DNA from: a phage
Direction: 5' to 3' (one strand)
Sequence record: PX441839.1
Length of the DNA: 64,000 bases
In this document: positions 60,736-64,000 of the stretch, one piece after another
Numbering within the stretch: position 1 is the first letter of the stretch
How the letters are laid out: the number at the start of each line of letters is the position of its first letter
Notes under the pieces: generated by a model
Told to the model about the DNA's origin: nothing
Seen by the model: only the letters and a program-made list of their open reading frames with translations
Database searches by the model: none
Made by a program: the position numbers and the translations under genes

Positions 60736-61539
60736 GTGACAACACCAAAAGGACCAGATATTTTACCAATACACGCATATGGGGTGGAGGAGTACAACCC
60801 AAGCCATAGTGATACCCGACCAGAGTTACCTGACCTACCATCATTCTGTGATAAGGTTAGTGAAGCAATGAATGAGATCTCCGATGGAAATCCAGATGAA
60901 GCCATTAGGATACTGGCAGACTTACGATCAGACATGTCTTATTTTAGCATGGCACCAATCGTAGAGCATATGGATCAGAGCGAAGATGTTATTGCCAAAT
61001 TTGCCCTGACCTACCATGAAATAAGACAAAGCCTCCTCGGAGTTGCCACCTATGAGGAAAATGCCCAGGCCCTTATGGATGTGCTGGAAGATATCGATGA
61101 GAGCATTACCGATGTTGAGCCTTCTACTGTGTGGGGAGACAAAATAAAGGAGTACGTGGGGTACGGAGTCAAGGGGTTCTTCGACAGCTTCCCCTACCTT
61201 TCTAAAAGGACTTTTTATTACAACCCTTATCTTAAGGCGTACATGGCAAAGGTTAATCTCCCTGATTCCCAAACCATATGGATTAAGGTTATGGGCGGTG
61301 GTGTTGTAATGAATACCGACAGTGGGACTATGACAATAACTGGCAGAGAGGTTATGTTCTCATCAATAAGCAGAGAATCAGTTAAGTACACGGATAAGCA
61401 ATTGAAAGAGATGTTTGAAACATCCATGTGGGATGCCAGCGAAGACGAACTTATGATGTTTAAGATGGTTTACCCTGAACACCACAGTGATATTTTAGAT
61501 TTACTGAGGGCTTGGCGCGGAAAAGAAAATACGAATTGA
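60736..61539 (+). CDS. Hypothetical acidic protein (267 aa)
   Basis: GTG start with AGGAG SD. Confidence 0.4.
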   Translation: MTTPKGPDILPIHAYGVEEYNPSHSDTRPELPDLPSFCDKVSEAMNEISDGNPDEAIRILADLRSDMSYFSMAPIVEHMDQSEDVIAKFALTYHEIRQSLLGVATYEENAQALMDVLEDIDESITDVEPSTVWGDKIKEYVGYGVKGFFDSFPYLSKRTFYYNPYLKAYMAKVNLPDSQTIWIKVMGGGVVMNTDSGTMTITGREVMFSSISRESVKYTDKQLKEMFETSMWDASEDELMMFKMVYPEHHSDILDLLRAWRGKENTN

Positions 61540-61627
61540 GATATTTTTGCAGGATATTTGGATTGATATTTGGGTTCAATTCTCAGATTGAAATTCGATT
61601 TGAGATTTTATTTTAGATTTTTACATA

Positions 61628-61647
61628 TGGGCTTCGGCCCCCTTTTT
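61628..61647 (+). terminator. Short hairpin terminator
   Basis: GGGC-TTCG-GCCC followed by CCTTTTT. Confidence 0.4.
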
Positions 61648-61788
61648 CACATTTGTTGAACAACTTGGAGGTCATACGGAACGATTGGTAGGCGTCAGTG
61701 ATAATTAAGTACAACATTTCACACATTAAGTGCAGAATATTGGCATAACTCACAATATATCACACATAACTTCGTTAACGTATGTTCA

Positions 61789-61975
61789 AAAATTTTGGAA
61801 CTCGATCACTTTTTTAAAATCCAAATCGTATTCGTCAGTGAGGGAATGAGTTGGGTACAGAGGTAAAATTTTGAGAACCGGAGCACTTTTTTAAATCTGA
61901 GATCGTATTCAAAATCCAGATACAGAGTGAAAAATTTGAGAACTAGAGAGCTTTTTTAAAATCCAAATCGTATTC
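61789..61975. repeat. Three imperfect ~47-bp direct repeats (iteron-like)
   Basis: Units near 61789-61834, 61863-61910, 61929-61975, each ending CTTTTTTAAAATCCAAATCGTATTC or a close variant, spaced about 66-74 bp. Confidence 0.6.
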
Positions 61976-62305
61976 TTTTCTAAGTTGTTAAGCACAATTT
62001 TATAGTGGAGTCAATGTGTTTTTAAAATCTTCACAAAAGGTTTAGATGGGAGTGATTATCGTTTAGAAAGGTAAATAAGAATCATTATCATTTGCAGGAT
62101 AGCGGGCACCCCCGGTGTTTTGTACTCCGGTTTCAATGTTCCCGCTATGTGTATAATATACCCTGGACCGTTACCGCTTGCAAGTGTCTTTACATTTATT
62201 TACAAAACTATTTAAGACGAACTACCGGCGATCAACCTTCGGTGCGCCTCCGCTACCTTAGCCCCGCCTTTACGCCGTGGGGTGGCGTTCCTAACCTTTG
62301 AAAAT

Positions 62306-62334
62306 AGTATAGCCAGGCTTGCGCCCGGCGTCAA
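62306..62334 (-). promoter_or_regulatory. Sigma70-like promoter firing leftward into the non-coding/repeat region
   Basis: On the minus strand: TTGACG, 17-nt spacer, TATACT; no ORF downstream. Confidence 0.45.
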
Positions 62335-62337
62335 TAG

Positions 62338-62646
62338 TTATTTTTCCAATTCCCTTAAATAATCCACCACGCCAAACCAATAAGAGATTAACAACGGTTT
62401 AAGTTTAAATTGTTCCTTCCGTGCCAGATAAACAACCTTTACACATTTTTCGTCGGCGTCGATCCTACCCTGGCGGCGCGGGCTGTTGTAAGTTACATCT
62501 TGTATTTTGTGAAGATCTAAGATCTCGCTTACGGTTAAACCTGTTTCCCTTGCCACCTGGTGAACGGTTCCACCTTGCCAACCTAAAGCAGCCATCAATA
62601 GTTCGGTATTGGTTTTCATGTTCCTGTTTCCTTTGTTTGCTTTCAT
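62338..62646 (-). CDS. Small putative DNA-binding regulator (possibly leaderless)
   Basis: MKANKGNRNMKTNTELLMAALGWQGGTVHQVARETGLTVSEI... with HTH-like stretch; ATG lies about 7 nt after the -10 box (alternative start at 62619 with SD). Confidence 0.35.
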   Translation of the reverse strand: MKANKGNRNMKTNTELLMAALGWQGGTVHQVARETGLTVSEILDLHKIQDVTYNSPRRQGRIDADEKCVKVVYLARKEQFKLKPLLISYWFGVVDYLRELEK

Positions 62647-62653
62647 TGCGTAC

Positions 62654-62682
62654 ATAATACCCCCATATAAAAAGGATTGCAA
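62654..62682 (-). promoter_or_regulatory. Sigma70-like promoter (divergent partner)
   Basis: On the minus strand: TTGCAA, 17-nt spacer, TATTAT. Confidence 0.45.
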
Positions 62683-62706
62683 GTAAAAATATTTTATATT
62701 TAGGTA

Positions 62707-62735
62707 TTGACTTGTAAAGGTCAATGATTGATAAT
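62707..62735 (+). promoter_or_regulatory. Sigma70-like promoter with overlapping inverted repeat
   Basis: TTGACT, 17-nt spacer, GATAAT; TTGAC-n8-GTCAA inverted repeat overlaps the -35. Confidence 0.45.
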
Positions 62736-62767
62736 GGCACCACGTTAACAAAACAGGTGATAAAGAT

Positions 62768-63094
62768 ATGCTACAAACTAAATATTATATTGAAGGTATC
62801 CAGGCGGCGCATAACGGCGCGGGGCGTTTCTGCCGTTATCGTAAACCTGAGAACGTAGAACAATGGCAAGCTGGTTATGATAGTGTTGAACGATCCCACA
62901 TGGTGATCCGATTCAACAGCAAGCCAATGGGTAAGCCGCTTACAGCGTACCAGGAGCGCCCCGATCCTGTCTATATGGGGACGCTAAGACAGTGCCAGGA
63001 TCGCGCCGTGTCTTTATCCCTTGCTGACCGTTCGGCATTTTTTGAAGTGTACACAAAAGACGGCGATTTGTACCGATACGAAAGCAAGATCTGA
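62768..63094 (+). CDS. Hypothetical protein with Rmf-like N-terminal motif
   Basis: GIQAAHNGAGRFCRYRKPENVEQWQAGY loosely resembles the ribosome modulation factor core (GYQAG...CPY...QW..GW); weak. Confidence 0.3.
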   Translation: MLQTKYYIEGIQAAHNGAGRFCRYRKPENVEQWQAGYDSVERSHMVIRFNSKPMGKPLTAYQERPDPVYMGTLRQCQDRAVSLSLADRSAFFEVYTKDGDLYRYESKI

Positions 63095-63110
63095 TTTTAT
63101 TTAAAAGCTA

Positions 63111-63139
63111 TTGACAAGCGCCGCTATCGTCACCATAAT
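63111..63139 (+). promoter_or_regulatory. Sigma70 consensus-like promoter
   Basis: TTGACA, 17-nt spacer, CATAAT; AAGGAG SD and ATG follow. Confidence 0.55.
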
Positions 63140-63168
63140 ACAGACTCAAAAGCAAAGGAGGCCGTAAG

Positions 63169-63408
63169 ATGTTAACCAAAAATCAATTAGTTTCTGCCGT
63201 TAAGGGTACGAATGGCATTAGCCTTGATCAAGTTTACAAGGAGTGTCGGCGATACGGGAAGATCCGACACCTGGAGGATGTAGACCAGTCCGGCACGTTG
63301 GTAACATATGCCTACATTGAATACAAGTATCTTTCTTGGGAGTTCGAACTTGTAAAAGGTGAAGTTTTATCCGTTTCATGGAACAAAGAAAATAACTGGT
63401 CATTCTAA
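63169..63408 (+). CDS. Hypothetical protein
   Basis: 79 aa ORF with AAGGAGG SD. Confidence 0.4.
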   Translation: MLTKNQLVSAVKGTNGISLDQVYKECRRYGKIRHLEDVDQSGTLVTYAYIEYKYLSWEFELVKGEVLSVSWNKENNWSF

Positions 63409-63426
63409 AAATAATTGTTGACGTAT

Positions 63427-63454
63427 CGTTATGACCGTTTATAATAGCGGTCAT
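63427..63454 (+). promoter_or_regulatory. Sigma70 consensus-like promoter with operator-like inverted repeat
   Basis: TTGACG, 16-nt spacer, TATAAT; inverted repeat ATGACCG...CGGTCAT brackets the -10. Confidence 0.55.
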
Positions 63455-63491
63455 AGAGAAACGAAACACAATCCAAACAAAGGAAATAAAA

Positions 63492-63866
63492 ATGAAAAAA
63501 TCTATCATTGCCATTATCGCCGCAGTATCTTTTAATGCCAGTGCTTACACTGTAAACCTGAATGATCTTTCAAGTTGGGAAAACAACATGCGTGATCGCT
63601 TTTCGGTCCCGAATCAAATCAAGAAAAGTCAGGAAGTCTACTGTATCGCAGATCTGACTAATGAGATCACTGGTGAAATCACAAAGGGCAATAGCTTTAA
63701 TCTTTCCGGCCCTTACGAAATGCAGGGCGGGGATCGTGTCTACACTGAGCAGGACGAAACAGGATCAACCGTTGTTTATGTTAACCCTAAAACGGGGCGC
63801 GGTTCCATTTCCATGATGGACAATAGCCAGGTTATTGCAAGCGGAAATATTAAGTGTAAATTTTAA
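63492..63866 (+). CDS. Secreted protein (signal peptide)
   Basis: MKKSIIAIIAAVSFNASA signal-peptide-like N-terminus; Cys near the C-terminus. Confidence 0.45.
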   Translation: MKKSIIAIIAAVSFNASAYTVNLNDLSSWENNMRDRFSVPNQIKKSQEVYCIADLTNEITGEITKGNSFNLSGPYEMQGGDRVYTEQDETGSTVVYVNPKTGRGSISMMDNSQVIASGNIKCKF

Positions 63867-63875
63867 AAATAGTTG

Positions 63876-63904
63876 TTGACACCGATTAGAGAAAGTAATA
63901 TTAT
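63876..63904 (+). promoter_or_regulatory. Sigma70 consensus-like promoter
   Basis: TTGACA, 17-nt spacer, TATTAT; 5' UTR hairpin GGGG-AGTTGTT-CCCC then SD. Confidence 0.5.
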
Positions 63905-63960
63905 TTATCACATAGGGCGGGGAGTTGTTCCCCACCTAAAAACAAAGAGAGTAAATAAAA

Positions 63961-64000
63961 TGGCTAAAGTAACTTTCAAAAAATCTCGCGGCGTATCTTC
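63961..64000 (+). CDS. Start of a CDS running off the window (MAKVTFKKSRGVS...)
   Basis: ATG after an SD-like AGAGAG; open to the window edge. Confidence 0.3.

Follow-up and report, generated by a model that had tools for sequence, protein, structure and literature searches.

Is a pair of back-to-back promoters between two small phage genes a regulatory switch, or is it the geometry to be expected around one gene that is inverted among its neighbors? This is the question raised by positions 62338 to 63094 of a phage DNA of 64,000 nucleotides (sequence record PX441839.1), which was analyzed over its full length and is called here the window. The segment holds a leftward gene for a protein of 93 amino acids (aa), p93, and a rightward gene for one of 108 aa, p108, with two divergent promoters, P_L and P_R, between them. 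An earlier note on this DNA had compared the arrangement to a repressor/Cro-type switch. Our analysis indicates that the segment is probably an ordinary early region of a virulent Vequintavirinae-type myovirus, and that the promoters of p93 and p108 do not form a switch. The more unusual feature is a structured non-coding element that lies on the 3′ side of p93. The data were coordinates, the start codon, promoter conservation, synteny, predicted folds and base composition, and what is said below of transcription, termination and the functions of p93 and p108 is drawn from them.

The promoters themselves stood up well. Two sigma70-type promoters back to back, with −35 boxes about 25 bp apart and reading into a small leftward and a 108-aa rightward open reading frame (ORF), had been proposed; the measured distance is 24 bp, both predicted promoters were supported and the 108-aa ORF is present (Table 1). 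A scan of 5 kb returned 25 promoter-like sites against 12.9 ± 4.1 expected, and a single match of 9/12 or 10/12 bases has no significance alone. P_L and P_R are taken as real because their position is conserved across homologous loci, which is comparative evidence and not a matter of match scores. A sigma70-type promoter was found 25–47 nt 5′ of the p93-type start in all 10 homologous loci, and a divergent rightward promoter stands behind it in Pectobacterium phage phiTE, in locus L014, in Escherichia phage A73 and in the Phapecoctavirus-type loci. The equivalent of P_R in phiTE and in Cronobacter phage CR3 (TTGACA or TTGACC, 17 nt, CACAAT) is located 5′ of the p108 homologues. An alternative leftward site overlapping the −35 box of P_R is shared by the window and Salmonella phage SSBI34, and is not among the promoter-like sites 5′ of p93 in other loci.

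The geometry is explained by the layout of the region. The window belongs to a large virulent Vequintavirinae-type myovirus whose closest relative is SSBI34 (Vequintavirinae, 141 kb), with 91% identity over positions 61500–64000. Phages phiTE and CR3 are also Vequintavirinae, and phiTE is reported as lytic (PMC3475682). Over the last part of the window, beginning at about 52 kb, both the GC skew and the ORFs are rightward, p93 being the sole leftward gene within this array. Beyond p108 we found three matches of 11/12 to the sigma70 consensus, followed respectively by an ORF of 79 aa, by one of 124 aa with a signal-peptide-like N-terminus and by the next ORF, and these show the one-promoter-per-gene layout of the early region. 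The region would be read by the host RNA polymerase, nearly every small gene having its own sigma70 promoter. In this it resembles the early arrays of rV5-like phages and other Vequintavirinae, virulent coliphages that use the host sigma70 RNA polymerase: strings of small ORFs without assigned function, where every ORF has a Shine-Dalgarno sequence and a near-consensus TTGACA-17-TATAAT promoter in front of it, in relatives that are lytic. Unlike in those arrays, here p93 is inverted, which gives the back-to-back promoter pair, and the terminator of this gene lies within yet another promoter. The pair is back to back because one gene is inverted among neighbors that are each served by a promoter of their own; the promoter of p93 would necessarily face away from that of the next rightward gene, p108.

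The two genes are not an obligate pair. Homologues of both were found in Pectobacterium phages phiTE and CB7, and p108 homologues additionally in Cronobacter phages CR3, CR8 and CR9 and in Escherichia phage A73. In CR3 the non-coding element is followed directly by the p108 promoter and homologue, without p93. The p93 homologue of L007 is on the plus strand, in the slot held by p108 in CR3, and is not divergent. Phapecoctavirus-type loci carry p93-type genes without p108. Overall, 151 records have matches to p93 and 33 to p108. Because the genes are not obligately paired and the lifestyle is virulent, a design of the CI/Cro type can be ruled out, and with it the switch of the earlier note. The likeness to the lambda CI/Cro (PRM/PR) switch consists of divergent promoters about 25 bp apart and of a small helical protein with a pattern like that of a helix-turn-helix (HTH) on one side. 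In contrast to lambda, this phage is virulent and has neither a lysogeny module nor repeated operators, its rightward product is not a DNA-binding repressor (p108 has no HTH), the two genes occur independently, and the p93 messenger is predicted to have a leader, while the lambda cI transcript from PRM is leaderless.

No operator came to light between the promoters. The inverted repeat TTGAC-n8-GTCAA described over the rightward −35 box exists (with arms of six nucleotides, ATTGAC and GTCAAT), but its role as an operator was rejected on chance-level statistics and lack of conservation. The 148-nt spacer contains seven repeats with five-nucleotide arms, against 3.2 ± 2.3 in shuffled sequences, and 8.7% of the shuffles reach seven; the repeat was not found in phiTE or A73 and is confined to the window and the 91%-identical SSBI34. 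A longer candidate, the 17-nt inverted repeat 62656–62672/62692–62708, was likewise discarded, being only partly kept in SSBI34 and having no evident counterpart in the phiTE alignment. Within the spacer there are no repeated operators common to P_L and P_R, the single repeat with six-nucleotide arms being at chance level.

We have also examined the start of p93, for which a leaderless messenger had been suggested from an ATG about 7 nt after the −10 box of P_L. The ATG is there; leaderless translation was rejected in view of the invariant N-terminus of the family and of the leaders in all homologous loci. In an alignment of 39 homologues (A2), with identities down to 37%, the N-terminus M-(K)-T-N-T-E-L-L-M is invariant and corresponds to the ATG at 62619. 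The homologues start at this MKTNTELL-type site, 25–47 nt after the −10 box in 10 loci, with a Shine-Dalgarno sequence and a leader of about 18–40 nt; in A73 and the Phapecoctavirus-type loci the leaders are of at least 40 nt and contain a conserved hairpin. Only the window and SSBI34 have the upstream ATG, which is absent from the family N-terminus; the ATG beside the −10 box of phiTE is in another frame, one that leads to a stop. We propose that p93 would be translated from a conventional messenger with a leader of about 28 nt, the Shine-Dalgarno sequence AAGGAA and the ATG at 62619, and that the transcript would end at the hairpin directly after the stop codon. Public annotations differ: phiTE_079 (L002 2351–2782) has 143 aa and CB7_124 has 140 aa. 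Both are extended by about 50 codons upstream, over the divergent promoter region and into the neighboring gene, and the conserved start gives 93 aa. The profile PHROG 33408 inherits this extension.

Some points weigh against reading the segment as an ordinary early region. P_L matches the consensus at only 9/12 positions and the second leftward site, at 62718–62691, competes with it; promoters and terminator are in any case predictions. In the window phage and SSBI34 an in-frame ATG is located exactly at the predicted transcription start, and a minor leaderless isoform extended at the N-terminus may be made in these two phages. Besides, sub-threshold HTH matches recur in the p93 family, so that p93 may have a regulatory role.

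Table 1. Features in and around the p93–p108 segment (positions of the window; +, rightward; −, leftward).
Feature	Position	Strand	Basis
p93 coding sequence (CDS), 93 aa, start MKTNTELL	62338..62619	−	ORF list; same 93-aa CDS annotated in SSBI34
Shine-Dalgarno-like AAGGAA, 8 nt 5′ of the conserved ATG at 62619	62628..62633	−	sequence; equivalent purine-rich sites in all homologues
In-frame upstream ATG, 7 nt after the P_L −10 box	62644..62646	−	not conserved
P_L, sigma70-type, TTGCAA(62682-62677)-17-TATTAT(62659-62654), 9/12	62654..62682	−	sequence; conserved position
Alternative leftward promoter-like site TTTACA-16-TAAAAT, 10/12	62691..62718	−	overlaps P_R −35
Inverted repeat ATTGAC-n8-GTCAAT over the P_R −35 box	62706..62725		sequence
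P_R, sigma70-type, TTGACT(62707-62712)-17-GATAAT(62730-62735), 10/12	62707..62735	+	sequence; conserved position
Shine-Dalgarno-like AGGTGA, 7 nt 5′ of the p108 ATG	62755..62760	+	sequence
p108 CDS, 108 aa	62768..63094	+	ORF list
Fur-box-like palindrome TAAGAATCATTATCA, 12/14 specified bases of TGATAATnATTATCA	62076..62090		7-1-7 consensus match
P2, sigma70 promoter TTGCAA-17-TATATT, inside the element	62155..62183	−	hexamers conserved
Element core: 18-mer 62222–62239, hairpin H2 62242–62256, hairpin H3 62257–62286	62222..62286	+	conservation, covariation
P1, sigma70 promoter TTGACG-17-TATACT, antisense into the element	62306..62334	−	hexamers conserved
Hairpin GCCGGGC-GCAA-GCCUGGC, likely p93 terminator, directly after the p93 stop	62312..62329	−	terminator scan
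Sigma70 consensus matches, 11/12 each	63111–63139, 63418–63445, 63876–63904	+	each directly 5′ of a small rightward ORF

The non-coding element extends over positions 62071–62334. In a megablast comparison only positions 62074–62345 were conserved at the nucleotide level, at about 78–82%, a conservation shared by over 100 phage genomes from several genera; most of these records leave the stretch without annotation. Putative Fur boxes of the 7-1-7 type are found at a conserved position: at least one in 24 of 33 distinct loci, in one to five copies, mostly about 144–155 nt 5′ of the near-invariant 18-mer CTACCGGCGATCAACCTT, which has a single copy in the window. Over the rest of the loci, 18 such sites were counted in 305 kb. 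L006 and L040 carry a perfect match (14/14), TGATAATCATTATCA. Three metagenomic phage contigs (L043, L048 and L061, the longest of about 141 kb) have other palindromes, TTAGTCAC..GTGAGTAA, in two copies about 130–175 nt 5′ of the 18-mer, where other loci have their Fur boxes; from these sequences, the Fur-box operator seems to have been exchanged there for the site of another regulator.

Downstream of the 18-mer, hairpins H2 and H3 are supported by covariation. Paired bases occupied 87% of the cells against about 43% in slid controls, a value that none of 500 shuffles attained, and six pairs have compensatory changes on both sides, U.G-to-C-G changes occurring as well. Base pairs are kept by compensatory changes, in a folded strand that may be RNA or DNA. 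In 21 of 22 distinct sequences the plus strand of the core is the more stable of the two when folded. When the 272-nt element was folded entire as a single sequence, neither strand gave a significant result, and it was only the comparative analysis that revealed H2 and H3. Two leftward promoters, P1 and P2, run antisense to the structured strand, with hexamers that are kept and GC-rich spacers that vary (for P1, in A4, A6 and the divergent loci). The spacer of P1 is at the same time the hairpin at the 3′ end of p93 (minimum free energy −15 kcal/mol, z −3.0), whose sequence varies in relatives and yet the hairpin still forms. For the plus strand of the element no convincing sigma70 or sigma28 promoter was seen by inspection, a TTGAAT-18-CAGAAT around the Fur box being weak, and degenerate in the window.

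The core is also present in Aeromonas phages 2L372D, 2L372X, 4L372D and 4L372XY (L022, L037, L052 and L060; 115–139 kb), at loci that have an antisense promoter TTGCTT-17-TATAAT and neither Fur boxes nor p93. This suggests that the 18-mer and hairpin core is a mobile or ancient unit of the element. Known classes were tried and rejected. There was no match to an Rfam family at E ≤ 1, ARAGORN found no tRNA in 19 loci or in the window, and an 11-codon ORF of phiTE inside the element is broken in the window. A host origin was discarded too: E. coli genomes gave no match, and in a set of 185,579 genomes the element turned up on a single metagenome-assembled contig. In Klebsiella phage vB_Kpn_K45PH128C2 (OY978796.1; L021 1469–1622) the 5′ half of the element is labeled by PHATE as tRNA-Met and tRNA-Ile, an annotation that is probably an artefact. 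A relation to the pseudo-ToxI escape locus of phiTE was considered as well; that locus is not annotated in the phiTE stretch examined, and no sequence comparison with ToxI was made. The searchable literature offered nothing relevant on Fur boxes in rV5-like phages, on phage RMF homologues or on the sequence of the element core, and the element is apparently undescribed.

The disposition of the boxes recalls Fur-repressed small RNA genes (for example ryhB) and the titration of Fur by multicopy boxes (FURTA), with one to five high-scoring Fur 7-1-7 boxes directly 5′ of a structured and conserved non-coding sequence. Unlike those systems, the element has no Rfam match and no similarity to E. coli genomes, there is no clear sigma70 promoter over its boxes on the structured strand while two conserved promoters are antisense, and it is phage-borne, its core occurring also without Fur boxes in the Aeromonas phages.

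It is to this element, rather than to p108, that p93 is consistently linked as a neighbor, on its 3′ side. The p93-type genes are convergent with the element and end about 100 nt away from it in the window and in L001–L003, L009–L011, L014 and L019. Among 16 independent p93 loci of IMG/VR, 10 or 11 carry the element no more than 400 nt from the start of the gene, just past the p93 3′ end. It is possible, and we hold this only tentatively, that p93 is functionally coupled to the element. The coupling could take several forms: p93 might bind the DNA or RNA of the element, it might be controlled by convergent plus-strand transcription that comes from the side of the Fur boxes, or the antisense promoters P1 and P2 might counteract the plus-strand RNA of the element. 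The tight convergent synteny, which extends to L064 and L073, argues for coupling, and so do the unusual invariance of both the p93 N-terminal domain and the element core and the fact that the p93 terminator hairpin is built into the P1 spacer. Against it, CR3 and the Klebsiella Mydovirus-type loci have the element and no p93, and distant homologues of the p93 N-terminal domain occur without the element.

On the other side of the promoters, p108 has a partial resemblance to the ribosome modulation factor RMF, for which a loose motif had been remarked. The resemblance was reproducible, but membership in RMF is not established, all scores being sub-threshold. The predicted structure has an RMF-like helical hairpin at residues 5–38 and a beta-alpha-beta domain at 44–96 with weak ClpS-like similarity. 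When the p108 family was compared by hhalign with 21 RMF sequences, residues 10–39 aligned on RMF 17–47 (E 0.002, probability 13%), the motif C-x-Y-x7-(Q)W-x2-G-[YW] falling on this stretch. The alignment pairs G10, A13, C22, Y24, W33 and G36 of p108 with G16, A19, C29, Y31, W40 and G43 of RMF, all of them invariant in the RMF alignment except Y31. Considering the invariant positions as a whole (G16, A19, G20, G23, C29, P30, W40, G42, G43, W44 and R45), the p108 family keeps G, A, G, C, W (or F) and G by the hhalign alignment, and does not keep P30, G42, W44 (Y instead) or R45. A homologue 70% identical to p108, P0054, matches the Pfam RMF family with E 0.024 and 15.1 bits, against a cut-off of 27.9 bits. 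For p108 itself there was no match in Pfam, NCBIfam or PDB sequence searches, and an exhaustive search of representatives returned only close family members and one spurious low-complexity repeat protein.

The likeness to RMF (PF04957; PDB 4v8g chain AV) lies in a predicted two-helix hairpin, which p108 would form with its N-terminal 40 residues or so as RMF does, and in the part of the motif G..A....C.Y.......W..G that is kept. In contrast with RMF, a strongly basic stand-alone protein of about 55 aa encoded by a stationary-phase host gene, p108 scores below the family threshold, is twice as long and has a second, ClpS-like alpha/beta domain. It is also near neutral (N-terminal domain charge 0 to +4 versus +5 to +8), lacks the basic N-terminal KRQKRDR segment and is encoded by a phage behind an early promoter. 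We propose that p108 would be an independently expressed early protein made of an RMF-like two-helix hairpin and a small alpha/beta domain. That it acts as a phage RMF-like factor, docking on the 30S subunit near the anti-Shine-Dalgarno and modulating host translation early in infection, is unlikely in our estimate: the six paired residues and the match of P0054 speak for it, and the sub-threshold scores (15.1 versus 27.9 bits; 13% for hhalign), the lack of a match for p108 itself, the missing basic segment, the charge and the loss of P30, G42 and R45 speak against it. A terminator-like hairpin with a T-run (TGCTGACCGTTCGGCA TTTTTT) was noticed at 63022–63037, still within the coding sequence of p108 near its 3′ end, 57 nt before the stop.

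These pieces can be assembled into one picture, to which we would give little credence as a whole. In it, p93 and the element would form a single conserved regulatory module of large virulent enterobacterial myoviruses, a structured plus-strand RNA or DNA hairpin array behind host Fur boxes that would make the module iron-responsive or would act as a multicopy decoy titrating Fur. The plus-strand product would be opposed by the two antisense promoters and by the convergent p93, and p108 would be RMF-like and act on host ribosomes.

The leftward protein had been described as HTH-like, and this found only weak backing. Sequence searches of Pfam, NCBIfam, PHROGs and PDB named neither p93 nor p108, and p93 matches PHROG 33408 and 19316, both without assigned function. 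The N-terminal 36 residues or so are invariant, and the C-terminal half is variable and ends in an SYW-G-V motif. The AlphaFold2 model is all-helical, with six helices and a pLDDT (predicted local distance difference test) of 94. On manual reading VHQVARETGLTVSEILDL fits the classic A5-G9-I15 pattern of an HTH, sub-threshold Pfam matches of this kind recur in the family (DprA_WH in 12/39 and HTH_7 in 6/39 sequences, and also HTH_8, HTH_3 and HTH_IclR), and the top Foldseek matches are HTH regulators, all with E > 1. No fold search with p93 gave a significant match. The net charge of the conserved N-terminal domain was −4 to +1 among the 39 homologues, neutral to acidic, and by this measure it has no basic DNA-contacting surface; judged by its sequence, such a domain would be as compatible with binding a protein as with binding DNA, or more so. 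We see p93 as a compact all-helical protein, with a near-invariant and slightly acidic N-terminal domain that would carry an HTH-like sequence pattern.

If p93 were a small HTH autoregulator of the Cro, Aca or early-gene-repressor type, binding the shared spacer and tuning one or both divergent promoters, the pattern in VHQVARETGLTVSEILDL, the recurrent Pfam and Foldseek hits and the back-to-back promoters kept in phiTE, L014, A73 and the Phapecoctavirus-type loci would all fall into place. We regard this as quite improbable, since there is no repeated or conserved operator (the repeat is at chance level and limited to the window and SSBI34), the charge is unusual for a DNA reader, no structural match is significant, the rightward partner gene varies among phages and in L007 p93 is not divergent, and the phage is virulent.

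Finally, the segment had been judged richer in GC than the phage backbone and hence acquired, and neither judgment survived the calculation. The segment has 43.3% GC and the window 43.8%, which places it at the 40th percentile of 757-nt windows; the p93 ORF has 42.6% and the intergenic spacer 31.8%. Only the p108 ORF is high, with 49.2% GC (98th percentile of 89 ORFs) and 50.5% at third codon positions (91st percentile). The impression of richness arises from the contrast with the AT-rich positions 61540–62073 (33% GC) on the left and from the non-coding stretch 62200–62337, outside the segment, which has 53.6% GC. A recently acquired GC-rich island is very improbable, the GC content of p108 being set against that of the segment and p93 and against homologues of both genes at the same position in phiTE and related Vequintavirinae, with 45–83% protein identity.

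Directly downstream of P1 and P2, in their antisense direction, comes the AT-rich stretch 61540–62073, which is non-coding. A unit of about 55 nt is found in it as three direct repeats, at 61779, 61856 and 61921, with spacings of 77 and 65 nt, and the stretch could be a repeat region that is regulatory or resembles a replication origin. Within it, 61553–61647 gave a sub-threshold match to the Rfam rimP leader (25.9 versus 47 bits, E 0.56), with two hairpins after a 267-aa ORF, one of which (61581–61605) is terminator-like by terminator scan.

The divergent layout reveals no new switch, being the promoter geometry expected around one inverted early gene. Three leads are worth keeping. The first is p93, a family in more than 150 phage genomes with an almost invariant N-terminal domain, and the second is p108, a weak candidate for a phage-encoded version of the RMF fold. 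The third is the apparently undescribed element whose position p93 marks, with Fur-box-like sites, covarying hairpins and antisense promoters, conserved in more than 100 phage genomes. If it is true that this element ties phage development to the iron status of the host or to Fur, that would be new biology for virulent phages.

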